In this document: positions 1-38,566 of the stretch, one piece after another | How positions within the stretch are numbered: position 1 is the first letter of the stretch | Layout of the letters: each line of letters starts with the position of its first letter | Origin: Escherichia phage DN1 | Sequence record: MF374379.1 | Reading direction: 5' to 3' (one strand) | Length of the DNA stretch: 41,559 nucleotides | Program-made: the position numbers and the translations under genes | Notes under the pieces: generated by a model | The model's input: only the letters and a program-made list of their open reading frames with translations | The model's database searches: none | What the model was told of the DNA's origin: nothing

Positions 1-12
1 GGGCGGCGACCT
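1..12. other. cos: Left cohesive end (cosN-derived 12-nt end GGGCGGCGACCT)
   Basis: Window begins GGGCGGCGACCTCGCGGGTTTTCGCTATTTATGAAAATTTTCCGG, which I recognise as the left end of mature lambda DNA. Confidence 0.9.
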
Positions 13-189
13 CGCGGGTTTTCGCTATTTATGAAAATTTTCCGGTTTAAGGCGTTTCCGTTCTTCTTCGTCATAACTTAATGTTTTTATTTAAAATACC
101 CTCTGAAAAGAAAGGAAACGACAGGTGCTGAAAGCGAGCTTTTTGGCCTCTGTCGTTTCCTTTCTCTGTTTTTGTCCGTGGAATGAACA
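13..189. promoter_or_regulatory. cosB: cosB terminase-binding region upstream of nu1
   Basis: Non-coding stretch between the cohesive end and the nu1 start at 190; position matches the lambda R-site/IHF-site region. Individual R sites not mapped. Confidence 0.7.
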
Positions 190-709
190 ATGGAAGTCAA
201 CAAAAAGCAGCTGGCTGACATTTTCGGTGCGAGTATCCGTACCATTCAGAACTGGCAGGAACAGGGAATGCCCGTTCTGCGAGGCGGTGGCAAGGGTAAT
301 GAGGTGCTTTATGACTCTGCCGCCGTCATAAAATGGTATGCCGAAAGGGATGCTGAAATTGAGAACGAAAAGCTGCGCCGGGAGGTTGAAGAACTGCGGC
401 AGGCCAGCGAGGCAGATCTCCAGCCAGGAACTATTGAGTACGAACGCCATCGACTTACGCGTGCGCAGGCCGACGCACAGGAACTGAAGAATGCCAGAGA
501 CTCCGCTGAAGTGGTGGAAACCGCATTCTGTACTTTCGTGCTGTCGCGGATCGCAGGTGAAATTGCCAGTATTCTCGACGGGCTCCCCCTGTCGGTGCAG
601 CGGCGTTTTCCGGAACTGGAAAACCGACATGTTGATTTCCTGAAACGGGATATCATCAAAGCCATGAACAAAGCAGCCGCGCTGGATGAACTGATACCGG
701 GGTTGCTGA

Positions 710-735
<26 letters not shown>
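190..735 (+). CDS. nu1: Terminase small subunit Nu1
   Basis: 181-aa ORF starting MEVNKKQLADIFGASIRTIQNWQEQGMPVLRGGGKGNEVLYDSAAVIKWY, recognised as lambda Nu1 with an N-terminal wHTH. Confidence 0.95.
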
Positions 736-4416
<3,681 letters not shown>

Positions 4417-4436
<20 letters not shown>

Positions 4437-5736
4437 TCTCCCGCATATTGCCAGCATGGCCTTTAATGAGCCGCTGATGCTTGAACCCGCCTATGCGCGG
4501 GTTTTCTTTTGTGCGCTTGCAGGCCAGCTTGGGATCAGCAGCCTGACGGATGCGGTGTCCGGCGACAGCCTGACTGCCCAGGAGGCACTCGCGACGCTGG
4601 CATTATCCGGTGATGATGACGGACCACGACAGGCCCGCAGTTATCAGGTCATGAACGGCATCGCCGTGCTGCCGGTGTCCGGCACGCTGGTCAGCCGGAC
4701 GCGGGCGCTGCAGCCGTACTCGGGGATGACCGGTTACAACGGCATTATCGCCCGTCTGCAACAGGCTGCCAGCGATCCGATGGTGGACGGCATTCTGCTC
4801 GATATGGACACGCCCGGCGGGATGGTGGCGGGGGCATTTGACTGCGCTGACATCATCGCCCGTGTGCGTGACATAAAACCGGTATGGGCGCTTGCCAACG
4901 ACATGAACTGCAGTGCAGGTCAGTTGCTTGCCAGTGCCGCCTCCCGGCGTCTGGTCACGCAGACCGCCCGGACAGGCTCCATCGGCGTCATGATGGCTCA
5001 CAGTAATTACGGTGCTGCGCTGGAGAAACAGGGTGTGGAAATCACGCTGATTTACAGCGGCAGCCATAAGGTGGATGGCAACCCCTACAGCCATCTTCCG
5101 GATGACGTCCGGGAGACACTGCAGTCCCGGATGGACGCAACCCGCCAGATGTTTGCGCAGAAGGTGTCGGCATATACCGGCCTGTCCGTGCAGGTTGTGC
5201 TGGATACCGAGGCTGCAGTGTACAGCGGTCAGGAGGCCATTGATGCCGGACTGGCTGATGAACTTGTTAACAGCACCGATGCGATCACCGTCATGCGTGA
5301 TGCACTGGATGCACGTAAATCCCGTCTCTCAGGAGGGCGAATGACCAAAGAGACTCAATCAACAACTGTTTCAGCCACTGCTTCGCAGGCTGACGTTACT
5401 GACGTGGTGCCAGCGACGGAGGGCGAGAACGCCAGCGCGGCGCAGCCGGACGTGAACGCGCAGATCACCGCAGCGGTTGCGGCAGAAAACAGCCGCATTA
5501 TGGGGATACTCAACTGTGAGGAGGCTCACGGACGCGAAGAACAGGCACGCGTGCTGGCAGAAACCCCCGGTATGACCGTGAAAACGGCCCGCCGCATTCT
5601 GGCCGCAGCACCACAGAGTGCACAGGCGCGCAGTGACACTGCGCTGGATCGTCTGATGCAGGGGGCACCGGCACCGCTGGCTGCAGGTAACCCGGCATCT
5701 GATGCCGTTAACGATTTGCTGAACACACCAGTGTAA
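4417..5736 (+). CDS. C: Capsid assembly protease C (GTG start; ORF track extends upstream to 4282)
   Basis: In-frame GTG at 4417 gives MTAELRNLPHIASMAFNEPLMLEPAYARVFF; ClpP/SppA-like peptidase region; overlaps the B 3' end. Confidence 0.85.
5131..5736 (+). CDS. nu3: Scaffolding protein Nu3 (internal in-frame start within C)
   Basis: ATG at 5131 is in frame with C and sits at the canonical lambda Nu3 position (MDATRQMFAQK...). Confidence 0.75.
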   Translation: MDATRQMFAQKVSAYTGLSVQVVLDTEAAVYSGQEAIDAGLADELVNSTDAITVMRDALDARKSRLSGGRMTKETQSTTVSATASQADVTDVVPATEGENASAAQPDVNAQITAAVAAENSRIMGILNCEEAHGREEQARVLAETPGMTVKTARRILAAAPQSAQARSDTALDRLMQGAPAPLAAGNPASDAVNDLLNTPV

Positions 5737-5745
5737 GGGATGTTT

Positions 5746-6078
5746 ATGACGAGCAAAGAAACCTTTACCCATTACCAGCCGCAGGGCAACAGTGACCCGG
5801 CTCATACCGCAACCGCGCCCGGCGGATTGAGTGCGAAAGCGCCTGCAATGACCCCGCTGATGCTGGACACCTCCAGCCGTAAGCTGGTTGCGTGGGATGG
5901 CACCACCGACGGTGCTGCCGTTGGCATTCTTGCGGTTGCTGCTGACCAGACCAGCACCACGCTGACGTTCTACAAGTCCGGCACGTTCCGTTATGAGGAT
6001 GTGCTCTGGCCGGAGGCTGCCAGCGACGAGACGAAAAAACGGACCGCGTTTGCCGGAACGGCAATCAGCATCGTTTAA
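5746..6078 (+). CDS. D: Head decoration protein D
   Basis: [27 protein letters not shown]...; ORF track start at 5740 is two codons upstream. Confidence 0.9.
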
Positions 6079-6133
6079 CTTTACCCTTCATCACTAAAGG
6101 CCGCCTGTGCGGCTTTTTTTACGGGATTTTTTT

Positions 6134-7159
6134 ATGTCGATGTACACAACCGCCCAACTGCTGGCGGCAAATGAGCAGAAATTTAAGTTTGATCCGCTGT
6201 TTCTGCGTCTCTTTTTCCGTGAGAGCTATCCCTTCACCACGGAGAAAGTCTATCTCTCACAAATTCCGGGACTGGTAAACATGGCGCTGTACGTTTCGCC
6301 GATTGTTTCCGGTGAGGTTATCCGTTCCCGTGGCGGCTCCACCTCTGAATTTACGCCGGGATATGTCAAGCCGAAGCATGAAGTGAATCCGCAGATGACC
6401 CTGCGTCGCCTGCCGGATGAAGATCCGCAGAATCTGGCGGACCCGGCTTACCGCCGCCGTCGCATCATCATGCAGAACATGCGTGACGAAGAGCTGGCCA
6501 TTGCTCAGGTCGAAGAGATGCAGGCAGTTTCTGCCGTGCTTAAGGGCAAATACACCATGACCGGTGAAGCCTTCGATCCGGTTGAGGTGGATATGGGCCG
6601 CAGTGAGGAGAATAACATCACGCAGTCCGGCGGCACGGAGTGGAGCAAGCGTGACAAGTCCACGTATGACCCGACCGACGATATCGAAGCCTACGCGCTG
6701 AACGCCAGCGGTGTGGTGAATATCATCGTGTTCGATCCGAAAGGCTGGGCGCTGTTCCGTTCCTTCAAAGCCGTCAAGGAGAAGCTGGATACCCGTCGTG
6801 GCTCTAATTCCGAGCTGGAGACAGCGGTGAAAGACCTGGGCAAAGCGGTGTCCTATAAGGGGATGTATGGCGATGTGGCCATCGTCGTGTATTCCGGACA
6901 GTACGTGGAAAACGGCGTCAAAAAGAACTTCCTGCCGGACAACACGATGGTGCTGGGGAACACTCAGGCACGCGGTCTGCGCACCTATGGCTGCATTCAG
7001 GATGCGGACGCACAGCGCGAAGGCATTAACGCCTCTGCCCGTTACCCGAAAAACTGGGTGACCACCGGCGATCCGGCGCGTGAGTTCACCATGATTCAGT
7101 CAGCACCGCTGATGCTGCTGGCTGACCCTGATGAGTTCGTGTCCGTACAACTGGCGTAA
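6134..7159 (+). CDS. E: Major capsid protein E
   Basis: MSMYTTAQLLAANEQKFKFDPLFLRLFFRESYPF...; HK97-fold major capsid protein of lambda; ORF track extends upstream to 6107. Confidence 0.95.
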   Translation: MSMYTTAQLLAANEQKFKFDPLFLRLFFRESYPFTTEKVYLSQIPGLVNMALYVSPIVSGEVIRSRGGSTSEFTPGYVKPKHEVNPQMTLRRLPDEDPQNLADPAYRRRRIIMQNMRDEELAIAQVEEMQAVSAVLKGKYTMTGEAFDPVEVDMGRSEENNITQSGGTEWSKRDKSTYDPTDDIEAYALNASGVVNIIVFDPKGWALFRSFKAVKEKLDTRRGSNSELETAVKDLGKAVSYKGMYGDVAIVVYSGQYVENGVKKNFLPDNTMVLGNTQARGLRTYGCIQDADAQREGINASARYPKNWVTTGDPAREFTMIQSAPLMLLADPDEFVSVQLA

Positions 7160-7200
7160 TCATGGCCCTTCGGGGCCATTGTTTCTCTGTGGAGGAGTCC

Positions 7201-7599
7201 ATGACGAAAGATGAACTGATTGCCCGTCTCCGCTCGCTGGGTGAACAACTGAACCGTGATGTCAGCCTGACGGGGACGAAAGAAGAACTGGCGCTCCGTG
7301 TGGCAGAGCTGAAAGAGGAGCTTGATGACACGGATGAAACTGCCGGTCAGGACACCCCTCTCAGCCGGGAAAATGTGCTGACCGGACATGAAAATGAGGT
7401 GGGATCAGCGCAGCCGGATACCGTGATTCTGGATACGTCTGAACTGGTCACGGTCGTGGCACTGGTGAAGCTGCATACTGATGCACTTCACGCCACGCGG
7501 GATGAACCTGTGGCATTTGTGCTGCCGGGAACGGCGTTTCGTGTCTCTGCCGGTGTGGCAGCCGAAATGACAGAGCGCGGCCTGGCCAGAATGCAATAA
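7201..7599 (+). CDS. FI: DNA packaging protein FI
   Basis: MTKDELIARLRSLGEQLNRDVSLTGTKEELALRVAELKEEL; lambda FI position. Confidence 0.85.
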   Translation: MTKDELIARLRSLGEQLNRDVSLTGTKEELALRVAELKEELDDTDETAGQDTPLSRENVLTGHENEVGSAQPDTVILDTSELVTVVALVKLHTDALHATRDEPVAFVLPGTAFRVSAGVAAEMTERGLARMQ

Positions 7600-7610
7600 C
7601 GGGAGGCGCT

Positions 7611-7964
7611 GTGGCTGATTTCGATAACCTGTTCGATGCTGCCATTGCCCGCGCCGATGAAACGATACGCGGGTACATGGGAACGTCAGCCACCATTACA
7701 TCCGGTGAGCAGTCAGGTGCGGTGATACGTGGTGTTTTTGATGACCCTGAAAATATCAGCTATGCCGGACAGGGCGTGCGCGTTGAAGGCTCCAGCCCGT
7801 CCCTGTTTGTCCGGACTGATGAGGTGCGGCAGCTGCGGCGTGGAGACACGCTGACCATCGGTGAGGAAAATTTCTGGGTAGATCGGGTTTCGCCGGATGA
7901 TGGCGGAAGTTGTCATCTCTGGCTTGGACGGGGCGTACCGCCTGCCGTTAACCGTCGCCGCTGA
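7611..7964 (+). CDS. FII: Head-tail connector FII
   Basis: 117-aa ORF MADFDNLFDAAIARADETIRGYMG at the lambda FII position. Confidence 0.9.
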   Translation: MADFDNLFDAAIARADETIRGYMGTSATITSGEQSGAVIRGVFDDPENISYAGQGVRVEGSSPSLFVRTDEVRQLRRGDTLTIGEENFWVDRVSPDDGGSCHLWLGRGVPPAVNRRR

Positions 7965-7975
7965 AAGGGGGATGT

Positions 7976-8554
7976 ATGGCCATAAAAGGTCTTGAGCAGG
8001 CCGTTGAAAACCTCAGCCGTATCAGCAAAACGGCGGTGCCTGGTGCCGCCGCAATGGCCATTAACCGCGTTGCTTCATCCGCGATATCGCAGTCGGCGTC
8101 ACAGGTTGCCCGTGAGACAAAGGTACGCCGGAAACTGGTAAAGGAAAGGGCCAGGCTGAAAAGGGCCACGGTCAAAAATCCGCAGGCCAGAATCAAAGTT
8201 AACCGGGGGGATTTGCCCGTAATCAAGCTGGGTAATGCGCGGGTTGTCCTTTCGCGCCGCAGGCGTCGTAAAAAGGGGCAGCGTTCATCCCTGAAAGGTG
8301 GCGGCAGCGTGCTTGTGGTGGGTAACCGTCGTATTCCCGGCGCGTTTATTCAGCAACTGAAAAATGGCCGGTGGCATGTCATGCAGCGTGTGGCTGGGAA
8401 AAACCGTTACCCCATTGATGTGGTGAAAATCCCGATGGCGGTGCCGCTGACCACGGCGTTTAAACAAAATATTGAGCGGATACGGCGTGAACGTCTTCCG
8501 AAAGAGCTGGGCTATGCGCTGCAGCATCAACTGAGGATGGTAATAAAGCGATGA
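7976..8554 (+). CDS. Z: Tail completion protein Z
   Basis: 192-aa ORF at the lambda Z position. Confidence 0.9.
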   Translation: MAIKGLEQAVENLSRISKTAVPGAAAMAINRVASSAISQSASQVARETKVRRKLVKERARLKRATVKNPQARIKVNRGDLPVIKLGNARVVLSRRRRRKKGQRSSLKGGGSVLVVGNRRIPGAFIQQLKNGRWHVMQRVAGKNRYPIDVVKIPMAVPLTTAFKQNIERIRRERLPKELGYALQHQLRMVIKR

Positions 8555-8946
8555 AACATACTGAACTCCGTGCAGCCGTACTGGATGCACTGGAGAAGCA
8601 TGACACCGGGGCGACGTTTTTTGATGGTCGCCCCGCTGTTTTTGATGAGGCGGATTTTCCGGCAGTTGCCGTTTATCTCACCGGCGCTGAATACACGGGC
8701 GAAGAGCTGGACAGCGATACCTGGCAGGCGGAGCTGCATATCGAAGTTTTCCTGCCTGCTCAGGTGCCGGATTCAGAGCTGGATGCGTGGATGGAGTCCC
8801 GGATTTATCCGGTGATGAGCGATATCCCGGCACTGTCAGATTTGATCACCAGTATGGTGGCCAGCGGCTATGACTACCGGCGCGACGATGATGCGGGCTT
8901 GTGGAGTTCAGCCGATCTGACTTATGTCATTACCTATGAAATGTGA
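8551..8946 (+). CDS. U: Tail terminator protein U
   Basis: 131-aa [34 protein letters not shown]; overlaps the Z stop. Confidence 0.9.
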
Positions 8947-8953
8947 GGACGCT

Positions 8954-9694
8954 ATGCCTGTACCAAATCCTACAATGCCGGTGAAAGGTGCCGGGACCAC
9001 CCTGTGGGTTTATAAGGGGAGCGGTGACCCTTACGCGAATCCGCTTTCAGACGTTGACTGGTCGCGTCTGGCAAAAGTTAAAGACCTGACGCCCGGCGAA
9101 CTGACCGCTGAGTCCTATGACGACAGCTATCTCGATGATGAAGATGCAGACTGGACTGCGACCGGGCAGGGGCAGAAATCTGCCGGAGATACCAGCTTCA
9201 CGCTGGCGTGGATGCCCGGAGAGCAGGGGCAGCAGGCGCTGCTGGCGTGGTTTAATGAAGGCGATACCCGTGCCTATAAAATCCGCTTCCCGAACGGCAC
9301 GGTCGATGTGTTCCGTGGCTGGGTCAGCAGTATCGGTAAGGCGGTGACGGCGAAGGAAGTGATCACCCGCACGGTGAAAGTCACCAATGTGGGACGTCCG
9401 TCGATGGCAGAAGATCGCAGCACGGTAACAGCGGCAACCGGCATGACCGTGACGCCTGCCAGCACCTCGGTGGTGAAAGGGCAGAGCACCACGCTGACCG
9501 TGGCCTTCCAGCCGGAGGGCGTAACCGACAAGAGCTTTCGTGCGGTGTCTGCGGATAAAACAAAAGCCACCGTGTCGGTCAGTGGTATGACCATCACCGT
9601 GAACGGCGTTGCTGCAGGCAAGGTCAACATTCCGGTTGTATCCGGTAATGGTGAGTTTGCTGCGGTTGCAGAAATTACCGTCACCGCCAGTTAA
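8954..9694 (+). CDS. V: Major tail tube protein V
   Basis: [36 protein letters not shown]..., with a C-terminal Ig-like region; ORF track starts 10 codons upstream at 8924. Confidence 0.9.
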
Positions 9695-9709
9695 TCCGGA
9701 GAGTCAGCG

Positions 9710-10132
9710 ATGTTCCTGAAAACCGAATCATTTGAACATAACGGTGTGACCGTCACGCTTTCTGAACTGTCAGCCCTGCAGCGCATTGAGCATCTCGCCC
9801 TGATGAAACGGCAGGCAGAACAGGCGGAGTCAGACAGCAACCGGAAGTTTACTGTGGAAGACGCCATCAGAACCGGCGCGTTTCTGGTGGCGATGTCCCT
9901 GTGGCATAACCATCCGCAGAAGACGCAGATGCCGTCCATGAATGAAGCCGTTAAACAGATTGAGCAGGAAGTGCTTACCACCTGGCCCACGGAGGCAATT
10001 TCTCATGCTGAAAACGTGGTGTACCGGCTGTCTGGTATGTATGAGTTTGTGGTGAATAATGCCCCTGAACAGACAGAGGACGCCGGGCCCGCAGAGCCTG
10101 TTTCTGCGGGAAAGTGTTCGACGGTGAGCTGA
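9710..10132 (+). CDS. G: Tail assembly chaperone G
   Basis: 140-aa ORF directly upstream of the tape measure gene; lambda G. Confidence 0.9.
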   Translation: MFLKTESFEHNGVTVTLSELSALQRIEHLALMKRQAEQAESDSNRKFTVEDAIRTGAFLVAMSLWHNHPQKTQMPSMNEAVKQIEQEVLTTWPTEAISHAENVVYRLSGMYEFVVNNAPEQTEDAGPAEPVSAGKCSTVS

Positions 10133-10548
10133 GTTTTGCCCTGAAACTGGCGCGTGAGATGGGGCGACCCGACTGGCGTGCCATGCTTGCCGGGATGTCA
10201 TCCACGGAGTATGCCGACTGGCACCGCTTTTACAGTACCCATTATTTTCATGATGTTCTGCTGGATATGCACTTTTCCGGGCTGACGTACACCGTGCTCA
10301 GCCTGTTTTTCAGCGATCCGGATATGCATCCGCTGGATTTCAGTCTGCTGAACCGGCGCGAGGCTGACGAAGAGCCTGAAGATGATGTGCTGATGCAGAA
10401 AGCGGCAGGGCTTGCCGGAGGTGTCCGCTTTGGCCCGGACGGGAATGAAGTTATCCCCGCTTCCCCGGATGTGGCGGACATGACGGAGGATGACGTAATG
10501 CTGATGACAGTATCAGAAGGGATCGCAGGAGGAGTCCGGTATGGCTGA
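10114..10548 (+). CDS. T: T frame of the G-T tail assembly chaperone, made by programmed -1 frameshift from G
   Basis: ORF in the -1 frame overlapping the G 3' end; slippery heptamer GGGAAAG at 10108..10114; conserved G/GT arrangement ahead of the tape measure gene. Confidence 0.8.
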   Translation: MFDGELSFALKLAREMGRPDWRAMLAGMSSTEYADWHRFYSTHYFHDVLLDMHFSGLTYTVLSLFFSDPDMHPLDFSLLNRREADEEPEDDVLMQKAAGLAGGVRFGPDGNEVIPASPDVADMTEDDVMLMTVSEGIAGGVRYG

Positions 10549-13102
10549 ACCGGTAGGCGATCTGGTCGTTGATTTGAGTCTGGATGCGGCCAGATTTGAC
10601 GAGCAGATGGCCAGAGTCAGGCGTCATTTTTCTGGTACGGAAAGTGATGCGAAAAAAACAGCGGCAGTCGTTGAACAGTCGCTGAGCCGACAGGCGCTGG
10701 CTGCACAGAAAGCGGGGATTTCCGTCGGGCAGTATAAAGCCGCCATGCGTATGCTGCCTGCACAGTTCACCGACGTGGCCACGCAGCTTGCAGGCGGGCA
10801 AAGTCCGTGGCTGATCCTGCTGCAACAGGGGGGGCAGGTGAAGGACTCCTTCGGCGGGATGATCCCCATGTTCAGGGGGCTTGCCGGTGCGATCACCCTG
10901 CCGATGGTGGGGGCCACCTCGCTGGCGGTGGCGACCGGTGCGCTGGCGTATGCCTGGTATCAGGGCAACTCAACCCTGTCCGATTTCAACAAAACGCTGG
11001 TCCTTTCCGGCAATCAGGCGGGACTGACGGCAGATCGTATGCTGGTCCTGTCCAGAGCCGGGCAGGCGGCAGGGCTGACGTTTAACCAGACCAGCGAGTC
11101 ACTCAGCGCACTGGTTAAGGCGGGGGTAAGCGGTGAGGCTCAGATTGCGTCCATCAGCCAGAGTGTGGCGCGTTTCTCCTCTGCATCCGGCGTGGAGGTG
11201 GACAAGGTCGCTGAAGCCTTCGGGAAGCTGACCACAGACCCGACGTCGGGGCTGACGGCGATGGCTCGCCAGTTCCATAACGTGTCGGCGGAGCAGATTG
11301 CGTATGTTGCTCAGTTGCAGCGTTCCGGCGATGAAGCCGGGGCATTGCAGGCGGCGAACGAGGCCGCAACGAAAGGGTTTGATGACCAGACCCGCCGCCT
11401 GAAAGAGAACATGGGCACGCTGGAGACCTGGGCAGACAGGACTGCGCGGGCATTCAAATCCATGTGGGATGCGGTGCTGGATATTGGTCGTCCTGATACC
11501 GCGCAGGAGATGCTGATTAAGGCAGAGGCTGCGTATAAGAAAGCAGACGACATCTGGAATCTGCGCAAGGATGATTATTTTGTTAACGATGAAGCGCGGG
11601 CGCGTTACTGGGATGATCGTGAAAAGGCCCGTCTTGCGCTTGAAGCCGCCCGAAAGAAGGCTGAGCAGCAGACTCAACAGGACAAAAATGCGCAGCAGCA
11701 GAGCGATACCGAAGCGTCACGGCTGAAATATACCGAAGAGGCGCAGAAGGCTTACGAACGGCTGCAGACGCCGCTGGAGAAATATACCGCCCGTCAGGAA
11801 GAACTGAACAAGGCACTGAAAGACGGGAAAATCCTGCAGGCGGATTACAACACGCTGATGGCGGCGGCGAAAAAGGATTATGAAGCGACGCTGAAAAAGC
11901 CGAAACAGTCCAGCGTGAAGGTGTCTGCGGGCGATCGTCAGGAAGACAGTGCTCATGCTGCCCTGCTGACGCTTCAGGCAGAACTCCGGACGCTGGAGAA
12001 GCATGCCGGAGCAAATGAGAAAATCAGCCAGCAGCGCCGGGATTTGTGGAAGGCGGAGAGTCAGTTCGCGGTACTGGAGGAGGCGGCGCAACGTCGCCAG
12101 CTGTCTGCACAGGAGAAATCCCTGCTGGCGCATAAAGATGAGACGCTGGAGTACAAACGCCAGCTGGCTGCACTTGGCGACAAGGTTACGTATCAGGAGC
12201 GCCTGAACGCGCTGGCGCAGCAGGCGGATAAATTCGCACAGCAGCAACGGGCAAAACGGGCCGCCATTGATGCGAAAAGCCGGGGGCTGACTGACCGGCA
12301 GGCAGAACGGGAAGCCACGGAACAGCGCCTGAAGGAACAGTATGGCGATAATCCGCTGGCGCTGAATAACGTCATGTCAGAGCAGAAAAAGACCTGGGCG
12401 GCTGAAGACCAGCTTCGCGGGAACTGGATGGCAGGCCTGAAGTCCGGCTGGAGTGAGTGGGAAGAGAGCGCCACGGACAGTATGTCGCAGGTAAAAAGTG
12501 CAGCCACGCAGACCTTTGATGGTATTGCACAGAATATGGCGGCGATGCTGACCGGCAGTGAGCAGAACTGGCGCAGCTTCACCCGTTCCGTGCTGTCCAT
12601 GATGACAGAAATTCTGCTTAAGCAGGCAATGGTGGGGATTGTCGGGAGTATCGGCAGCGCCATTGGCGGGGCTGTTGGTGGCGGCGCATCCGCGTCAGGC
12701 GGTACAGCCATTCAGGCCGCTGCGGCGAAATTCCATTTTGCAACCGGAGGATTTACGGGAACCGGCGGCAAATATGAGCCAGCGGGGATTGTTCACCGTG
12801 GTGAGTTTGTCTTCACGAAGGAGGCAACCAGCCGGATTGGCGTGGGGAATCTTTACCGGCTGATGCGCGGCTATGCCACCGGCGGTTATGTCGGTACACC
12901 GGGCAGCATGGCAGACAGCCGGTCGCAGGCGTCCGGGACGTTTGAGCAGAATAACCATGTGGTGATTAACAACGACGGCACGAACGGGCAGATAGGTCCG
13001 GCTGCTCTGAAGGCGGTGTATGACATGGCCCGCAAGGGTGCCCGTGATGAAATTCAGACACAGATGCGTGATGGTGGCCTGTTCTCCGGAGGTGGACGAT
13101 GA
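10541..13102 (+). CDS. H: Tail tape measure protein H
   Basis: 853-aa ORF, coiled-coil and Ala/Gln-rich, at the lambda H position. Confidence 0.95.
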   Translation: MAEPVGDLVVDLSLDAARFDEQMARVRRHFSGTESDAKKTAAVVEQSLSRQALAAQKAGISVGQYKAAMRMLPAQFTDVATQLAGGQSPWLILLQQGGQVKDSFGGMIPMFRGLAGAITLPMVGATSLAVATGALAYAWYQGNSTLSDFNKTLVLSGNQAGLTADRMLVLSRAGQAAGLTFNQTSESLSALVKAGVSGEAQIASISQSVARFSSASGVEVDKVAEAFGKLTTDPTSGLTAMARQFHNVSAEQIAYVAQLQRSGDEAGALQAANEAATKGFDDQTRRLKENMGTLETWADRTARAFKSMWDAVLDIGRPDTAQEMLIKAEAAYKKADDIWNLRKDDYFVNDEARARYWDDREKARLALEAARKKAEQQTQQDKNAQQQSDTEASRLKYTEEAQKAYERLQTPLEKYTARQEELNKALKDGKILQADYNTLMAAAKKDYEATLKKPKQSSVKVSAGDRQEDSAHAALLTLQAELRTLEKHAGANEKISQQRRDLWKAESQFAVLEEAAQRRQLSAQEKSLLAHKDETLEYKRQLAALGDKVTYQERLNALAQQADKFAQQQRAKRAAIDAKSRGLTDRQAEREATEQRLKEQYGDNPLALNNVMSEQKKTWAAEDQLRGNWMAGLKSGWSEWEESATDSMSQVKSAATQTFDGIAQNMAAMLTGSEQNWRSFTRSVLSMMTEILLKQAMVGIVGSIGSAIGGAVGGGASASGGTAIQAAAAKFHFATGGFTGTGGKYEPAGIVHRGEFVFTKEATSRIGVGNLYRLMRGYATGGYVGTPGSMADSRSQASGTFEQNNHVVINNDGTNGQIGPAALKAVYDMARKGARDEIQTQMRDGGLFSGGGR

Positions 13103-14126: not shown

Positions 14127-14131
14127 ATCCC

Positions 14132-24861: not shown

Positions 24862-25902
24862 ATGGCTCACCGCCCACGCTGGACATTGTCGCAAGTCACA
24901 GAATTATTTGAAAAACCGTTGCTGGATCTGCTGTTTGAAGCGCAGCAGGTGCATCGCCAGCATTTCGATCCTCGTCAGGTGCAGGTCAGCACGTTGCTGT
25001 CGATTAAGACCGGAGCTTGTCCGGAAGATTGCAAATACTGCCCGCAAAGCTCGCGCTACAAAACCGGGCTGGAAGCCGAGCGGTTGATGGAAGTTGAACA
25101 GGTGCTGGAGTCGGCGCGCAAAGCGAAAGCGGCAGGATCGACGCGCTTCTGTATGGGCGCGGCGTGGAAGAATCCCCACGAACGCGATATGCCGTACCTG
25201 GAACAAATGGTGCAGGGGGTAAAAGCGATGGGGCTGGAGGCGTGTATGACGCTGGGCACGTTGAGTGAATCTCAGGCGCAGCGCCTCGCGAACGCCGGGC
25301 TGGATTACTACAACCACAACCTGGACACCTCGCCGGAGTTTTACGGCAATATCATCACCACACGCACTTATCAGGAACGCCTCGATACGCTGGAAAAAGT
25401 GCGCGATGCCGGGATCAAAGTCTGTTCTGGCGGCATTGTGGGCTTAGGCGAAACGGTAAAAGATCGCGCCGGATTATTGCTGCAACTGGCAAACCTGCCG
25501 ACGCCGCCGGAAAGCGTGCCAATCAACATGCTGGTGAAGGTGAAAGGCACGCCGCTTGCCGATAACGATGATGTCGATGCCTTTGATTTTATTCGCACCA
25601 TTGCGGTCGCGCGGATCATGATGCCAACCTCTTACGTGCGCCTTTCTGCCGGACGCGAGCAGATGAACGAACAGACTCAGGCGATGTGCTTTATGGCAGG
25701 CGCAAACTCGATTTTCTACGGTTGCAAACTGCTGACCACGCCGAATCCGGAAGAAGATAAAGACCTGCAACTGTTCCGCAAACTGGGGCTAAATCCGCAG
25801 CAAACTGCCGTGCTGGCGGGCGATAACGAACAACAGCAGCGTCTGGAACAGGCACTGATGACCCCGGACACTGACGAATATTACAACGCGGCAGCACTAT
25901 GA
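24862..25902 (+). CDS. bioB: Biotin synthase BioB (radical SAM)
   Basis: 346 aa, [25 protein letters not shown]; CxxxCxxC motif (CPEDCKYC). Confidence 0.95.
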
Positions 25903-27053
25903 GCTGGCAGGATAAAATCAACGCGGCCCTCGATGCGCGGCGTGCTGCCGATGCCCTGCGTCGCCGTTATCCAGTGGCGCAAGGAGCAGGACGCTGGCTG
26001 GTGGCGGACGATCGCCAGTATCTGAACTTTTCCAGTAACGATTATTTAGGTTTAAGCCATCATCCGCAAATTATCCGTGCCTGGAAGCAGAGTGCGGAGC
26101 AATTTGGCGTCGGTAGCGGCGGCTCCGGTCACGTCAGCGGTTATAGCGTGGCACATCAGGCGCTGGAAGAAGAACTGGCCGAGTGGCTGGGCTATTCGCG
26201 GGCACTGCTGTTTATCTCTGGTTTTGCCGCTAATCAGGCGGTCATTGCCGCGATGATGGCGAAAGAGGACCGTATTGTTGCCGACCGGCTTAGCCATGCC
26301 TCATTGCTGGAGGCTGCCAGTTTAAGCCCGTCGCAGCTTCGCCGTTTTGTTCATAACGATGTCACTCATCTGGCGCGACTGCTTGCTTCCCCCTGTCCGG
26401 GGCAGCAAATGGTGGTGACAGAAGGCGTGTTCAGCATGGACGGCGATAGTGCGCCACTGGCGGAAATCCAGCAGGTAACGCAACAGCACAATGGCTGGTT
26501 GATGGTCGATGATGCCCACGGCACGGGCGTTATCGGGGAGCAGGGGCGCGGCAGCTGCTGGCTGCAAAAGGTAAAACCAGAATTGCTGGTAGTGACTTTT
26601 GGCAAAGGATTTGGCGTCAGCGGGGCAGCGGTGCTTTGCTCCAGTACGGTGGCGGATTATCTGCTGCAATTCGCCCGCCACCTTATCTACAGCACCAGTA
26701 TGCCGCCCGCTCAGGCGCAGGCATTACGTGCGTCGCTGGCGGTCATTCGCAGTGATGAGGGTGATGCACGGCGCGAAAAACTGGCGGCACTCATTACGCG
26801 TTTTCGTGCCGGAGTACAGGATTTGCCGTTTACGCTTGCTGATTCATGCAGCGCCATCCAGCCATTGATTGTCGGTGATAACAGCCGTGCGTTACAACTG
26901 GCAGAAAAACTGCGCCAGCAAGGCTGCTGGGTCACGGCGATTCGCCCGCCAACCGTACCCGCTGGTACTGCGCGACTGCGCTTAACGCTAACCGCTGCGC
27001 ATGAAATGCAGGATATCGACCGTCTGCTGGAGGTGCTGCATGGCAACGGTTAA
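25899..27053 (+). CDS. bioF: 8-amino-7-oxononanoate synthase BioF
   Basis: 384 aa, [26 protein letters not shown]; start overlaps the bioB stop. Confidence 0.95.
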
Positions 27054-27795
27054 TAAACAAGCCATTGCAGCGGCATTTGGTCGGGCAGCCGCACACTATG
27101 AGCAACATGCAGATCTACAGCGCCAGAGTGCTGACGCCTTACTGGCAATGCTTCCACAGCGTAAATACACCCACGTACTGGACGCGGGTTGTGGACCTGG
27201 CTGGATGAGCCGCCACTGGCGGGAACGTCACGCGCAGGTGACGGCCTTAGATCTCTCGCCGCCAATGCTTGTTCAGGCACGCCAGAAGGATGCCGCAGAC
27301 CATTATCTGGCGGGAGATATCGAATCCCTGCCGTTAGCGACTGCGACGTTCGATCTTGCATGGAGCAATCTCGCAGTGCAGTGGTGCGGTAATTTATCCA
27401 CGGCACTCCGCGAGCTGTATCGGGTGGTGCGCCCCAAAGGCGTGGTCGCGTTTACCACGCTGGTGCAGGGATCGTTACCCGAACTGCATCAGGCGTGGCA
27501 GGCGGTGGACGAGCGTCCGCATGCTAATCGCTTTTTACCGCCAGATGAAATCGAACAGTCGCTGAACGGCGTGCATTATCAACATCATATTCAGCCCATC
27601 ACGCTGTGGTTTGATGATGCGCTCAGTGCCATGCGTTCGCTGAAAGGCATCGGTGCCACGCATCTTCATGAAGGGCGCGACCCGCGAATATTAACGCGTT
27701 CGCAGTTGCAGCGATTGCAACTGGCCTGGCCGCAACAGCAGGGGCGATATCCTCTGACGTATCATCTTTTTTTGGGAGTGATTGCTCGTGAGTAA
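27040..27795 (+). CDS. bioC: Malonyl-ACP O-methyltransferase BioC
   Basis: Start taken at [27 protein letters not shown] (251 aa); SAM-binding LDAGCGPG motif; ORF track starts 13 codons upstream. Confidence 0.9.
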
Positions 27796-28465
27796 ACGTT
27801 ATTTTGTCACCGGAACGGATACCGAAGTGGGGAAAACTGTCGCCAGTTGTGCACTTTTACAAGCCGCAAAGGCAGCAGGCTACCGGACGGCAGGTTATAA
27901 ACCGGTCGCCTCTGGCAGCGAAAAGACCCCGGAAGGTTTACGCAATAGCGACGCGCTGGCGTTACAGCGCAACAGCAGCCTGCAGCTGGATTACGCAACA
28001 GTAAATCCTTACACCTTCGCAGAACCCACTTCGCCGCACATCATCAGCGCGCAAGAGGGCAGACCGATAGAATCATTGGTAATGAGCGCCGGATTACGCG
28101 CGCTTGAACAACAGGCTGACTGGGTGTTAGTGGAAGGTGCTGGCGGCTGGTTTACGCCGCTTTCTGACACTTTCACTTTTGCAGATTGGGTAACACAGGA
28201 ACAACTGCCGGTGATACTGGTAGTTGGTGTGAAACTCGGCTGTATTAATCACGCGATGTTGACTGCGCAGGCAATACAACACGCCGGACTGACTCTGGCG
28301 GGTTGGGTGGCGAACGATGTTACGCCTCCGGGAAAACGTCACGCTGAATATATGACCACGCTCACCCGCATGATTCCCGCGCCGCTGCTGGGAGAGATCC
28401 CCTGGCTTGCAGAAAATCCAGAAAATGCGGCAACCGGAAAGTACATAAACCTTGCCTTGTTGTAG
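27788..28465 (+). CDS. bioD: Dethiobiotin synthetase BioD (GTG start)
   Basis: (M)[27 protein letters not shown] with P-loop GTDTEVGKT; ORF track uses an upstream TTG at 27782. Confidence 0.9.
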
Positions 28466-28950
28466 CCATTCTGTATTTGGTTAAATTGCGAGCGAGATCG
28501 CGTCTTCGATTGACTGCAATTTAACCAATTAAATTCTAAAATAATCACGAAAAAAATTTTACTTCCGCCTCATGCGGCGAATGTGGGAATTGCCCAGGCG
28601 GCGGGGGATAGGGGCTGGAGACAGTTATCCACTATTCCTGTGGATAACCATGTGTATTAGAGTTAGAAAACACGAGGCAAGCGAGAGAATACGCGGCTTG
28701 CACGCGAATTGGCGTTAAAGACGGCTCAAAGAAATATCTTTTATTTTTTAACTGGTTAGATAAATGCAATGGCAGTCACTGAACAGGCATCTCTTGCCAT
28801 AAAACTGTCATCACTCATCTTGACAAATGTTAAAAAAGCCGTTGCTTTGGGGATAACCCGGTAAGGCCGGAGTTTTATCTCGCCACAGAGTAAATTTTGC
28901 TCATGATTGACAGCGGAGTTTACGCTGTATCAGAAATATTATGGTGATGA

Positions 28951-28970
28951 ACTGTTTTTTTATCCAGTAT
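28951..28970. promoter_or_regulatory. LexA (SOS) box in the uvrB promoter region
   Basis: ACTGTTTTTTTATCCAGTAT has the CTGT-N8-xCAG pattern with an AT-rich centre; lies ~75 bp upstream of the uvrB start. Confidence 0.7.
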
Positions 28971-29043
28971 AATTTGTTGGCATAATTAAGTACGACGAGT
29001 AAAATTACATACCTGCCCGCCCAACTCCTTCAGGTAGCGACTC

Positions 29044-31065
<2,022 letters not shown>

Positions 31066-31095
31066 CAGGATAGCGAAGAAGACTGATGACAAACG

Positions 31096-31205
31096 GAAAA
31101 CAGCCTGATGCGCTACGCTTATCAGGCCTACATTTTCTCCGCAATATATTGAATTTGCGCGGTTTGTAGGCCGGATAAGGCGTTCACGCCGCATCCGGCA
31201 TAAAC
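31096..31205. repeat. REP (repetitive extragenic palindromic) elements downstream of uvrB
   Basis: GCCTGATGCGCTACGCTTATCAGGCCTAC and GCCGGATAAGGCGTTCACGCCGCATCCGGC are typical E. coli REP palindromes. Confidence 0.75.
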
Positions 31206-31256
31206 AACGCGCACTTTGTCTTCAATAGGAAGCCGGAATTTTCCTTCGGATTTCCG

Positions 31257-32225
<969 letters not shown>

Positions 32226-32424
32226 TTAACCTGCCAATATTGAGGATACAAACTATTTTCTTCTACCTCTAAAGGACGATGCACGCTATGCCTCCCTGAT
32301 GATGTATATCAAAGTAAAACCGCCATTTTCCCTTATTCTGTAGCGAAATAGCACGATCATGACGCTATATACATGATTACATAGCGAAAGTGTGGATGGT
32401 AAAAATCTCATTTACACGCTAGTA

Positions 32425-32555
32425 TCGGCATAACCACTAAACACTCTAGCCTCTGCACCTGGGTCAACTGATACGGTGCTTTGGCCGTGACAATGCTCGT
32501 AAAGATTGCCACCAGGGCGAAGGAAGAAATGACTTCGCCTCCCGTATCTGGAAAG
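32425..32555 (+). ncRNA. Molybdenum cofactor (Moco) riboswitch in the moaA leader
   Basis: Structured 5' leader just before the moaA start, with segments CCTCTGCACCTGGG, GGCCGTGACAA, GCCACCAGGGCGAAGGAAG and CCTCCCG; boundaries approximate. Confidence 0.55.
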
Positions 32556-32561
32556 GTGTAC

Positions 32562-32895
32562 ATGGCTTCACAACTGACTGATGCATTTGCGCGTAAGTTT
32601 TACTACTTGCGCCTGTCGATTACCGATGTGTGTAACTTTCGTTGCACCTACTGCCTGCCGGATGGGTACAAGCCGAGCGGCGTCACCAATAAAGGCTTTC
32701 TAACCGTCGATGAAATTCGCCGGGTTACGCGCGCCTTCGCCAGTCTGGGCACCGAAAAAGTGCGCCTGACAGGCGGTGAGCCGTCTTTACGCCGCGACTT
32801 TACCGATATCATCGCCGCTGTGCGAGAAAATGACGCTATCCGCCAGATTGCGGTCACCACCAATGGTTACCGTCTGGAACGCGATGTGGCTTTGG
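32562..32895 (+). pseudogene. moaA: 5' fragment of moaA (about 110 codons), truncated at the substitution junction
   Basis: [41 protein letters not shown] (radical SAM CxxxCxxC); MoaA-like sequence ends after ...[12 protein letters not shown] and the frame runs into unrelated sequence. Confidence 0.8.
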
Positions 32896-32981
32896 CGCAT
32901 GACGCGTCGAGGTGCTTATCTTCTCGATCGCTGTCTTGTAGCTGCAATTCGCGCCATCCCCAAAACCACTCAAGTTCTGGT

Positions 32982-33020
32982 CTCAACGGTTAGGTTGAGA
33001 GTCCGTCGATGTTAAAGAGC
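32982..33020 (-). promoter_or_regulatory. nutL: nutL-like site (boxA + boxB hairpin) of the heterologous immunity region
   Basis: On the minus strand: boxA-like GCTCTTTAACA, then hairpin CTCAAC-CTAACC-GTTGAG, downstream of the PL-like promoter. Confidence 0.6.
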
Positions 33021-33062
33021 CTGCCAATCTGTTCCGTTTGGCTTCCAGCGTCCTGCTGATGG

Positions 33063-33100
33063 CTTAAATTTAAGACTTCTTAATTTATTGGTCAAGTGCA
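33063..33100 (-). promoter_or_regulatory. PL-like promoter with OL operator (leftward transcription)
   Basis: Minus strand reads TTGACC-17 nt-TAAATT; overlapping 18-bp operator-like palindrome ATTTAAGACTTCTTAATT resembles the P22/21-type half-sites seen in OR. Confidence 0.6.
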
Positions 33101-33159
33101 TTTTTGAAGAAAACTTAATTTTATGGGCGTGAATTTAGTTTGTCTTTGATTTTTAACGG

Positions 33160-33185
33160 GAAATAAAAAAGGGGCGAAAGCCCCT
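33160..33185 (-). terminator. Intrinsic terminator just past the cI stop
   Basis: Minus strand: GGGGCTTTCGCCCC hairpin followed by TTTTTTATTT. Confidence 0.65.
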
Positions 33186-33835
33186 TAAGGAAGGTTTGCT
33201 AGCTTGGCATCAACGACAACGCCAATGATTTTACAGTTCCCATTGATTTCAATCATTGGGTATTGTGGATTGAGTGGTTTCAGGAATTTTCTACCGGCAT
33301 CAATAACTAACTTTTTGAATGTCGCCTCGTTTTCTCCTTCAAGTTTGGCGACTACCAGCTTTCCATTACGTGGTTCGACTTCTGGGTCGACGAGAATAAT
33401 CATCCCCTCAGGAATACTCAGTCCTGCCGGGGCAGTCATTGAATCGCCTTTAACGTCGAGCCAAAAAGAGTCTTCAGAACAATCTACCGTTGTGTCGTAC
33501 CAGTTATCTATTGCACGCCTATGATATGGCTCTACAGCTTCCATCCAACATCCTGCGCTTACCCAACTAATTAGAGGATACGAACCTCTTGGATCATGCC
33601 TGCTGTGATAGGCAATGTTTGAAAGACTATCCTCTCCTTTCAACAGGTAATCAGGGGAGCACTGCAAAGCCTTGGCTAAGGCCAATAGGTTTTCGCCATT
33701 GGGCTCAGTTTCAGATCGCTCCCATTGGGAAATAGCAACATTAGACACGCCAACCATCTTGCCAAGGGCAGCCTGCCTAATCTTGAGTTCTTTTCTGCGA
33801 GCGCGAATACGCTCACCCATCAGTTGTGTATTCAT
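33185..33835 (-). CDS. cI: Immunity repressor of the P22 c2 / phage 21 cI type (LexA-like autocleavable)
   Basis: 216 aa, MNTQLMGERIRARRKELKIRQAALGKMVGVSNVAISQWERSE (HTH) with a C-terminal S24 peptidase-like region (GDSM); near-identical to the P22 C2 sequence as I recall it, with scattered substitutions. Confidence 0.9.
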   Translation of the reverse strand: MNTQLMGERIRARRKELKIRQAALGKMVGVSNVAISQWERSETEPNGENLLALAKALQCSPDYLLKGEDSLSNIAYHSRHDPRGSYPLISWVSAGCWMEAVEPYHRRAIDNWYDTTVDCSEDSFWLDVKGDSMTAPAGLSIPEGMIILVDPEVEPRNGKLVVAKLEGENEATFKKLVIDAGRKFLKPLNPQYPMIEINGNCKIIGVVVDAKLANLP

Positions 33836-33915: not shown

Positions 33916-34101
33916 ATGTACAAAAAAGATGTTATTGACCACTTCGGAACCCAGCGTGCTGTTGCTAAAGCACTAGGCATTAGCGATGCAGCAGTCTCTC
34001 AGTGGAAAGAAGTTATCCCAGAGAAAGACGCCTATCGATTGGAAATCGTTACAGCTGGCGCCCTGAAGTATCAAGAAAGTGCTTACCGCCAAGCGGCATA
34101 A
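33916..34101 (+). CDS. cro: Cro (P22/21 type)
   Basis: 61 aa, MYKKDVIDHFGTQRAVAKALGISDAAVSQWKEVIPEKDAYRLEIVTAGALKYQESAYRQAA. Confidence 0.9.
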   Translation: MYKKDVIDHFGTQRAVAKALGISDAAVSQWKEVIPEKDAYRLEIVTAGALKYQESAYRQAA

Positions 34102-34107
34102 GCAAAT

Positions 34108-34148
34108 TGCTCTTTAACAGTTCTGGCCTTTCACCTCTAACCGGGTGA
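34108..34148 (+). promoter_or_regulatory. nutR: nutR-like site (boxA TGCTCTTTAACA and boxB hairpin CACCTCTAACCGGGTG)
   Basis: Immediately downstream of cro; boxA resembles lambda CGCTCTTACACA; boxB loop CTAACC matches the nutL-like loop. Confidence 0.65.
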
Positions 34149-34216: not shown

Positions 34217-34516
34217 ATGGCACAAGCAAGCTACAGCAAGCCAACACAGCGAGAAATTGATCGCGCTGAAACTGATTTACTCATCAACCTGTCAACGCTT
34301 ACCCAGCGCGGTCTGGCAAAGATGATTGGCTGTCATGAATCGAAGATAAGCAGAACGGACTGGAGATTTATTGCTTCGGTCTTGTGTGCTTTCGGAATGG
34401 CATCAGACATCAGTCCGATTAGCAGGGCTTTTAAGTATGCGCTTGATGGACTCACAAAGAAAAAACGCCCGGTGTGCAAGACCGAGCGTTCTGAACAAAT
34501 CCAGATGGAGTTCTGA
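34217..34516 (+). CDS. cII: CII-type lysogeny activator, hybrid (heterologous N-terminus, lambda-type C-terminus)
   Basis: 99 aa; N-terminal MAQASYSKPTQREIDRAETDLLINLSTLTQRGLAKMIGCHESKISR is not lambda CII; C-terminal ...TERSEQIQMEF is the lambda CII ending. Confidence 0.85.
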   Translation: MAQASYSKPTQREIDRAETDLLINLSTLTQRGLAKMIGCHESKISRTDWRFIASVLCAFGMASDISPISRAFKYALDGLTKKKRPVCKTERSEQIQMEF

Positions 34517-35448: not shown

Positions 35449-36146
35449 AAAACATCGCCGCACAGATGGTTAACTTTGACCGTGAGCAGATGCGTCGGAT
35501 CGCCAACAACATGCCGGAACAGTACGACGAAAAGCCGCAGGTACAGCAGGTAGCGCAGATCATCAACGGTGTGTTCAGCCAGTTACTGGCAACTTTCCCG
35601 GCGAGCCTGGCTAACCGTGACCAGAACGAAGTGAACGAAATCCGTCGCCAGTGGGTTCTGGCTTTTCGGGAAAACGGGATCACCACGATGGAACAGGTTA
35701 ACGCAGGAATGCGCGTAGCCCGTCGGCAGAATCGACCATTTCTGCCATCACCCGGGCAGTTTGTTGCATGGTGCCGGGAAGAAGCATCCGTTACCGCCGG
35801 ACTGCCAAACGTCAGCGAGCTGGTTGATATGGTTTACGAGTATTGCCGGAAGCGAGGCCTGTATCCGGATGCGGAGTCTTATCCGTGGAAATCAAACGCG
35901 CACTACTGGCTGGTTACCAACCTGTATCAGAACATGCGGGCCAATGCGCTTACTGATGCGGAATTACGCCGTAAGGCCGCAGATGAGCTTGTCCATATGA
36001 CTGCGAGAATTAACCGTGGTGAGGCGATCCCTGAACCAGTAAAACAACTTCCTGTCATGGGCGGTAGACCTCTAAATCGTGCACAGGCTCTGGCGAAGAT
36101 CGCAGAAATCAAAGCTAAGTTCGGACTGAAAGGAGCAAGTGTATGA
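35445..36146 (+). CDS. P: Replication protein P (DnaB helicase loader)
   Basis: 233 aa, [44 protein letters not shown]. Confidence 0.95.
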
Positions 36147-36946
36147 CGGGCAAAGAGGCAATTATTCATTACCTGGGGACGCATAATAGCTTCTGTGCGC
36201 CGGACGTTGCCGCGCTAACAGGCGCAACAGTAACCAGCATAAATCAGGCCGCGGCTAAAATGGCACGGGCAGGTCTTCTGGTTATCGAAGGTAAGGTCTG
36301 GCGAACGGTGTATTACCGGTTTGCTACCAGGGAAGAACGGGAAGGAAAGATGAGCACGAACCTGATGAACAAACTGGATACGATTGGATTCGACAACAAA
36401 AAAGACCTGCTTATCTCGGTGGGCGATTTGGTTGATCGTGGTGCAGAGAACGTTGAATGCCTGGAATTAATCACATTCCCCTGGTTCAGAGCTGTACGTG
36501 GAAACCATGAGCAAATGATGATTGATGGCTTATCAGAGCGTGGAAACGTTAATCACTGGCTGCTTAATGGCGGTGGCTGGTTCTTTAATCTCGATTACGA
36601 CAAAGAAATTCTGGCTAAAGCTCTTGCCCATAAAGCAGATGAACTTCCGTTAATCATCGAACTGGTGAGCAAAGATAAAAAATATGTTATCTGCCACGCC
36701 GATTATCCCTTTGACGAATACGAGTTTGGAAAGCCAGTTGATCATCAGCAGGTAATCTGGAACCGCGAACGAATCAGCAACTCACAAAACGGGATCGTGA
36801 AAGAAATCAAAGGCGCGGACACGTTCATCTTTGGTCATACGCCAGCAGTGAAACCACTCAAGTTTGCCAACCAAATGTATATCGATACCGGCGCAGTGTT
36901 CTGCGGAAACCTAACATTGATTCAGGTACAGGGAGAAGGCGCATGA
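36143..36946 (+). CDS. Ren-NinI fusion ORF from a nin5-type deletion (Ren N-terminal ~74 aa joined in frame to the Ser/Thr phosphatase NinI lacking its first motif)
   Basis: N-terminus [30 protein letters not shown] (Ren) switches at ...MSTNL|MNKLDTIGF... to phosphatase sequence with GDLVDRG and GNHE motifs; no ninB-ninH genes between P and Q. Confidence 0.85.
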
Positions 36947-37566
36947 GACTCGAAAGCGTAGCTAAATTTCATTCGCCAAAAAGCCCGATGATGAGCGACT
37001 CACCACGGGCCACGGCTTCTGACTCTCTTTCCGGTACTGATGTGATGGCTGCTATGGGGATGGCGCAATCACAAGCCGGATTCGGTATGGCTGCATTCTG
37101 CGGTAAGCACGAACTCAGCCAGAACGACAAACAAAAGGCTATCAACTATCTGATGCAATTTGCACACAAGGTATCGGGGAAATACCGTGGTGTGGCATAT
37201 CTTGAAGGAAATACTAAGGCAAAGGTACTGCAAGTGCTCGCAACATTCGCTTATGCGGATTATTGCCGTAGTGCCGCGACGCCGGGGGCAAGATGCAGAG
37301 ATTGCCATGGTACAGGCCGTGCGGTTGATATTGCCAAAACAGAGCTGTGGGGGAGAGTTGTCGAGAAAGAGTGCGGAAGATGCAAAGGCGTCGGCTATTC
37401 AAGGATGCCAGCAAGCGCAGCATATCGCGCTGTGACGATGCTAATCCCAAACCTTACCCAACCCACCTGGTCACGCACTGTTAAGCCGCTGTATGACGCT
37501 CTGGTGGTGCAATGCCACAAAGAAGAGTCAATCGCAGACAACATTTTGAATGCGGTCACACGTTAG
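36943..37566 (+). CDS. Q: Late antiterminator Q
   Basis: 207 aa, [28 protein letters not shown]...; Cys-rich zinc-binding region CRDCHGTG...CGRCKG. Confidence 0.95.
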
Positions 37567-38242: not shown

Positions 38243-38566
38243 ATGAAGATGCCAGAAAAACATGACCTGTTGGCCGCCATTCTCGCGGCAAAGGAACAAG
38301 GCATCGGGGCAATCCTTGCGTTTGCAATGGCGTACCTTCGCGGCAGATATAATGGCGGTGCGTTTACAAAAACAGTAATCGACGCAACGATGTGCGCCAT
38401 TATCGCCTGGTTCATTCGTGACCTTCTCGACTTCGCCGGACTAAGTAGCAATCTCGCTTATATAACGAGCGTGTTTATCGGCTACATCGGTACTGACTCG
38501 ATTGGTTCGCTTATCAAACGCTTCGCTGCTAAAAAAGCCGGAGTAGAAGATGGTAGAAATCAATAA
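38243..38566 (+). CDS. S: Holin/antiholin S (dual start, Met1 and Met3)
   Basis: 107 aa, [41 protein letters not shown]; three TM segments; no amber codon in the frame. Confidence 0.95.

Follow-up and report, generated by a model that had tools for sequence, protein, structure and literature searches.

The 41,559-bp stretch of DNA analysed here (sequence record MF374379.1, Escherichia phage DN1; hereafter the window) is very probably the whole genome, bounded by cos, of a lambda-bio specialised transducing phage that would have arisen by illegitimate, microhomology-mediated excision of the prophage DE3 in a lysogen of E. coli B, for example BL21(DE3). At a novel joint, a truncated host moaA gene is fused to the leftward leader of the phage 21 immunity region, the antiterminator gene N is missing and its nut sites are retained, and the nin5 deletion of the DE3 lineage lies downstream of P.

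Parentage of the phage portion

Comparison with the BL21(DE3) chromosome identified the window as an exact circular permutation of NC_012971.2 positions 759802-801360, with 0 mismatches over 41,559 positions once the window was rotated at 32886. By this correspondence, the window is that chromosomal interval circularised and then opened at lambda cos. Its first base is lambda base 1 and its last is lambda 48502, making it a cos-to-cos unit with a single cos and a length of 85.7% of the lambda genome, the packaging range of lambda being ~78-105% of genome length.

The phage portion consists of 31.5 kb of DE3 (DE3 11407-42925), retained in identical form. Positions 20081-42925 of the DE3 record correspond to window 1-22845 in one uninterrupted match ending at attR, and DE3 11407 onward corresponds to window 32886 onward, through imm21, O, P, nin5, Q, S, R and cos. 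DE3 1-11406 is absent from the window and is no longer carried. The genes and sites left behind in this interval are attL, lacI, lacUV5, T7 gene 1, xis, exo, bet, gam, kil, cIII, ea10, ral and N21, with lacI, T7 gene 1, xis, exo, bet, gam, kil, cIII, ral and N all falling in DE3 1-11391.

The DE3 parent is lambda D69, which carries imm21, nin5 and the EcoRI-B deletion. The last of these, a marker of the D69/DE3 lineage, has its joint at window 21226-21231, where 4,878 bp of the b region (lambda 21226-26104) are missing. Two single-base indels relative to the lambda reference are also present, one in window 1-190 and one in window 14127-14772; the genes from nu1 to L are offset by -1 relative to lambda, and the register is regained in the K region, where a longer open reading frame occupies 14132-14875. 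The sequence matches BL21(DE3) here as elsewhere, and the indels are lineage or reference differences, not new mutations.

A colinear block of E. coli B DNA extends from attR to moaA

The left end of the host DNA is a legitimate attR (P-O-B'), whose 15-bp core lies at 22846-22860 (+), where the lambda core 27724-27738 maps. Lambda homology continues to 22864 (lambda 27742), host homology starts at 22846 and the DE3 record ends at 22845; the hybrid attachment site, which separates phage DNA from host DNA, is kept. From here the bio substitution runs for 10,045 bp (22846-32890, +) and contains ybhB, bioA, bioBFCD, uvrB, ybhK, the Moco riboswitch and the truncated moaA, with the genes in chromosomal order outward from attR, from ybhB to moaA. 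The segment matches E. coli B strains at 100% identity, and comparison with BL21(DE3) (NC_012971.2) gave 0 mismatches versus 56 with K-12 MG1655 (99.44% identity), which rules out K-12 as the source of the host DNA.

The truncated moaA comprises the first 109 codons of the gene (32562-32890, +) and matches the E. coli B chromosome without a difference as far as 32890. Its frame crosses the joint and continues into a 34-codon, out-of-context tail that passes through the antisense of the nutL boxB to a stop at 32993, giving a 143-aa fusion for which no record was found in the protein-to-contig index. Upstream of the truncated gene, the Moco riboswitch is intact (RF01055, 103.6 bits; 32430-32574, +). 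An Rfam match to the sRNA ES036 (CssrF) in the uvrB-ybhK intergenic region (43.4 bits; 31124-31165, -) is ordinary host DNA.

Three Chi octamers (GCTGGTGG) are present in the host DNA, at 25997 (+, in bioF), 30591 (+, in uvrB) and 23242 (-, in ybhB), and none in the lambda backbone. Chi in the plus-strand orientation is active for RecBCD entering from the lambda right end, and the two plus-strand copies are expected, by their orientation, to shield a Red- Gam- phage from RecBCD. Chi is also supplied by the bio DNA in lambda-bio phages (PMC11372144).

The joint between moaA and the N21 leader

The right end of the host DNA is a joint at a 5-bp microhomology, GTGGC (32886-32890), where moaA identity extends to 32890 and phage 21 identity begins at 32886. 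When the parental sequences of BL21(DE3) were compared with the window, the moaA parent read GGAACGCGAT-GTGGC-GAACTGG, the N21-leader parent read CTCCTTTAA-GTGGC-TTTGGCGC, and the product in the window read GGAACGCGAT-GTGGC-TTTGGCGC. On the phage side, the joint falls 2 nt before the Shine-Dalgarno sequence of N (AAGGAG on the transcribed strand) and 16 nt before its ATG. The preliminary description had a truncated moaA abutting the nutL side of the immunity region, exactly as the two parents now show; its reading of the last MoaA residues was correct, and the joint lies ~5 nt to the left of the position of about 32895 that it gave. It had also proposed aligning the breakpoint with K-12 moaA and with phage 21 or P22. 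This alignment places the host side in E. coli B and not K-12, on the mismatch counts given above, and the phage side in phage 21 and not P22, a P22 origin of the immunity region being rejected on an identity of ~84% versus 100% to phage 21, DE3 and lambda imm21.

When 20,000 random joints between the moaA and N21-leader regions were simulated, microhomologies of at least 5 bp were infrequent (P = 0.0049). A second shared element, the 11-mer CAATGGTTACC, is common to moaA and the start of N21 and lies at 32855-32865 in the window and at BL21(DE3) 759777-759787 in the other parent. The two copies lie 14-17 nt to the left of the joint, offset from register by 3 nt, and in the phage parent the 11-mer spans most of the N start codon and the codons that follow. 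Of the simulated joints, 0.2% had a shared stretch of 11 nt or more within +-40 nt (P = 0.002). The 11-mer may have aided synapsis, or it may be a coincidence. The formation of lambda-bio phages is reported to be RecA-independent and to rely on microhomologies (PMC11372144, Spi- assay literature), and the 5-bp microhomology with its nearby 11-mer fits short-homology, RecA-independent end-joining of this kind. The microhomology cited as typical for lambda-bio joints is ~9 bp (PMC11372144), and the shorter overlap found here counts against illegitimate excision as the explanation.

The junction, searched as a 29-mer or as a region, was found nowhere else in E. coli complete genomes, phage records, plasmids, IMG/VR viral contigs, GTDB genomes or JGI metagenomes; the joint is a single observation without independent replication in the public sequence searched. 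This uniqueness, together with the base-for-base identity of the window to the BL21(DE3) chromosome, is also what would be seen if reads from an induced DE3 region replicating in situ had been chimeric or falsely circularised, with no real phage molecule behind the record. We consider such an artefact very improbable, since an overlap of only 5 bp falls well below what an assembler needs for a join, since the microhomology and the 11-mer are both improbable in a random false join, and since the product fits biological selection, with one cos, the essential genes, attR, a size of 85.7% of lambda and the loss of N offset by nin5. Deliberate construction, by recombineering or cloning designed to carry bio-uvrB and to delete the PL operon, is less credible still. 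The DE3/D69 parent is itself a laboratory vector with engineered deletions, which lends the idea some plausibility, but no restriction site, linker, FRT or lox site, marker or recombineering scar is present at the joint, an end point within moaA serves no design purpose, and the perfectly colinear host DNA running out from attR is the mark that aberrant excision, not cloning, leaves. Under aberrant excision, the reading that we prefer, a further and unlikely proposal concerns the site itself: the 11-nt and 5-nt split homology might be a recurrent escape hotspot, by way of which Int- DE3 lysogens would release viable phage that lack T7 RNA polymerase.

The PL leader and nut sites are retained and N is lost

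To locate the regulatory sites on the phage side of the joint, the curated annotation of phage 21 (OL657228) was carried over with an offset of +30385, the identity to phage 21, DE3 and lambda imm21 being 100% from window 32886 (megablast). The PL promoter and the operators OL1 to OL3 occupy 33060-33149 (-), as indicated by a promoter scan and by the OL657228 annotation. On the minus strand, the -35 element TTGACC lies at 33095-33090, the -10 element TAAATT at 33072-33067 and the transcript start at 33060; the scan independently picked TTGACC-17-TAAATT at 33095-33067 (-), and OL1 to OL3 fall at 33068-33149 in the phage 21 annotation. Downstream, the PL leader is retained from its first transcribed base to a point 2 nt short of the Shine-Dalgarno sequence of N (32891-33060, -), 100% identical to phage 21 L001 2506-2675, and it now reads into antisense moaA.

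Within this leader, nutL consists of a boxA (GCTCTTTAACA; 33010-33020, -; annotated boxA-L at 33013-33020) and a boxB hairpin, TCTCAAC-CTAACC-GTTGAGA (RNA UCUCAAC-CUAACC-GUUGAGA; 32981-33000, -), the latter matching, base for base, the stem-loop annotated as nutL in phage 21. On the rightward side, nutR occupies 34109-34148 (+), with boxA at 34109-34119 (annotated boxA-R at 34109-34116) and boxB at 34131-34148. PL/OL, nutL and nutR are all 100% phage 21 sequence, and the boxA 11-mer GCTCTTTAACA occurs in exactly 2 copies in the window, one in each nut site, versus 0.01 expected by chance. Folding of boxB was less telling, as the minimum-energy fold of nutL chose an alternative pairing (z = -1.5) and nutR gave z = 0; the nut assignment is therefore based not on folding but on the boxA statistics and on identity to the sites annotated in phage 21. 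The boxA and boxB that had been proposed downstream of a PL-like promoter on the minus strand, and the retention of both nutL and nutR (the latter then given as 34108-34148), are borne out by these alignments.

The coding sequence of N, by comparison, lies just beyond the joint. In the phage 21 locus, the N ribosome-binding site is at 2492-2496 and the N coding sequence at 2186-2485, and the homology of the window stops at locus position 2501, with nutL, boxA-L and pL just inside. A tblastn search of the window with N21 (99 aa) gave no match below E = 1, and blastn of the window with the phage 21 segment from exo to N gave no match either, in agreement with the earlier proposal that N is missing. 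The N gene is wholly gone, along with its ribosome-binding site, and the phage 21 N/nut module is incomplete. Because the joint is 2 nt from the Shine-Dalgarno sequence, N was cleanly removed and the whole nutL-containing leader was kept.

Two small open reading frames near the joint were considered as a hidden N and rejected. A 13-codon, Arg-rich mini-ORF between nutL and the joint (32957-32916, -) is far too short, and it is native phage 21 leader without a well-spaced Shine-Dalgarno sequence. A 37-codon chimeric frame across the joint (32900-32787, -) has no likeness to N21 and gave no significant match by tblastn; its only similarity to N21 is the tripeptide V-T-I, encoded by the shared 11-mer. 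No N-like frame was found downstream of nutL, and nutL and nutR are orphan RNA sites that lack an N protein as their partner and are presumably vestigial.

Immunity region, nin5 and the rightward genes

Beyond the PL/OL region, the cI repressor of phage 21 (P22 c2-like, LexA family) lies at 33185-33835 (-) and cro of phage 21 at 33916-34101 (+). The cII gene (34217-34516) is a hybrid whose N-terminus comes from phage 21 and whose C-terminus comes from lambda (...KKRPxxxTERSEQIQMEF), and the right boundary of the imm21 substitution falls inside it, at window 34451. The terminator tR1 is annotated at ~34196, and lambda O and P are present in the list of open reading frames.

Downstream of P, where the preliminary description had placed a nin5-type deletion, blast against lambda showed lambda 40502-43297 to be missing. 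The joint of this nin5 deletion is at 36355-36364 (+), with window 36364 corresponding to lambda 40501 and window 36355 to lambda 43298, and ~2.8 kb is gone between P and Q. The deletion creates a ren'-'ninI fusion frame of 267 aa (36143-36946, +), which is the same 804-nt 'ren' as in DE3. The late antiterminator gene Q of lambda (36943-37566, +) lies directly downstream of P-ren', without tR2-tR4. Further to the right, the holin gene S is intact (38243-38566, +), with 107 codons and no amber codon; Sam7 is ruled out by the intact S, and the phage should consequently lyse sup0 hosts.

A model for formation and gene expression

We propose that normal excision of DE3 would be blocked in the lysogen, as the lacI-lacUV5-T7 gene 1 cassette interrupts int; since DE3 is Int- for this reason, only illegitimate excision could free it. 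A rare joining of GTGGC in host moaA with GTGGC in the N leader of phage 21 would have looped out 41,559 bp. The excised DNA would have included cos, all late genes, attR, 10 kb of host DNA, the PL/OL-cI-cro region, O, P, Q, S and R, and the part from attL to N would have stayed in the chromosome. A viable product would need cos, the late genes, O, P, Q, S, R and a packageable length, all of which are present here.

Loss of N is normally lethal, and it would be tolerated in this phage because nin5 removes the terminators between P and Q. In the rightward direction, PR transcripts leaking past tR1 would express O and P and continue to Q, as read-through to Q follows from the removal of the tR2-tR4 terminator region by nin5, and Q would then switch on the late genes as usual. 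From the position of nin5 downstream of P we infer N-independent expression of the delayed-early and late genes, in line with the earlier description. In the leftward direction, PL transcripts that include nutL would run on through antisense moaA and the antisense Moco riboswitch to reach ybhK in sense; PL transcription would no longer serve any phage gene. Lambda nin5 lacks the terminators and is unaffected by nus mutations (PMC4807359; PMC3177189), and on this published behaviour the phage probably still grows without N owing to nin5. It is expected to be N-independent, Nus-independent and Red- Gam- (Spi-), with Chi aiding it in rec+ hosts, and it would presumably form plaques and transduce bio.

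It is conceivable that the orphan sites still contribute to viability beside nin5, with the nut boxA loading NusB/NusE (with NusA, NusG and SuhB) and allowing partial, N-independent read-through of the Rho-dependent tR1. The boxA of imm21 is stated to be identical to EcBoxA, the rrn boxA, and to bind Nus factors better than lambda boxA (PMC3177189), and the exact 11-mer is kept at both nutL and nutR. We regard this contribution as unlikely, given that nin5 alone is enough for N- and Nus-independent growth of lambda (PMC3177189; PMC4807359), that no extra mechanism is required by the sequence, and that the leftward operon is left without any phage gene. Slightly less likely again is the broader version, in which the orphan, rrn-consensus boxA would still recruit a Nus complex without N for anti-Rho read-through at tR1, and in which imm21 phages would be less N-dependent than lambda. 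The loss of the P-Q terminators through nin5 remains our preferred account of growth without N.

Implications

DE3 is usually regarded as stable given its disrupted int, and the window suggests that DE3 in BL21(DE3) is not fully locked in. Int- DE3 lysogens are apparently able to yield a packageable genome that has all the essential lytic functions, minus the T7 RNA polymerase cassette and plus bio-uvrB. The point bears on the contamination of expression laboratories by phage and on how 'new' lambda-like isolates are interpreted. In the literature searched for DE3-derived bio or transducing phage, no paper was found. The window offers a textbook case, at base-pair resolution, of aberrant excision, specialised transduction and the nin5 bypass of N antitermination; it opens no new biological question.

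Comparison with known systems

Lambda-bio phages, N-deleted bio substitutions rescued by nin5, and the orphan nut sites of such phages are classical and decades old. What is particular here is the DE3 parent in E. coli B and the limits of the substitution, one lying within moaA and the other 2 nt from the Shine-Dalgarno sequence of N. As in the lambda-bio (Spi-) phages, attR is kept, the early genes on the int side have given way to a colinear host block from att through bio, red and gam have been lost, Chi is brought in by bio DNA and the joint lies at a microhomology. Unlike in the usual lambda-bio phages, the substitution is unusually long, extending past uvrB and ybhK into moaA, the loss extends through N and ends just short of its Shine-Dalgarno sequence, the parent is an Int- DE3 in E. 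coli B versus lambda cI857 in K-12, and the microhomology is 5 bp versus the ~9 bp cited as typical.

Lambda N- nin5 is reportedly the N-independent lambda of the Court and Sato type. The window shares with it, and with the nin5 controls of nus studies, the same deletion (lambda 40502-43297) and a Q that is reached without need of N or Nus, but N is here physically deleted with the entire PL operon and not mutated, and the nut sites are specific to phage 21. Compared with the N/nut system of phage 21, the boxA and boxB of nutL and nutR are 100% identical and the N21 gene is absent. Compared with DE3 (lambda D69, int::lacI-lacUV5-T7 gene 1), 31.5 kb is identical, and 10 kb of host DNA replaces DE3 1-11406.
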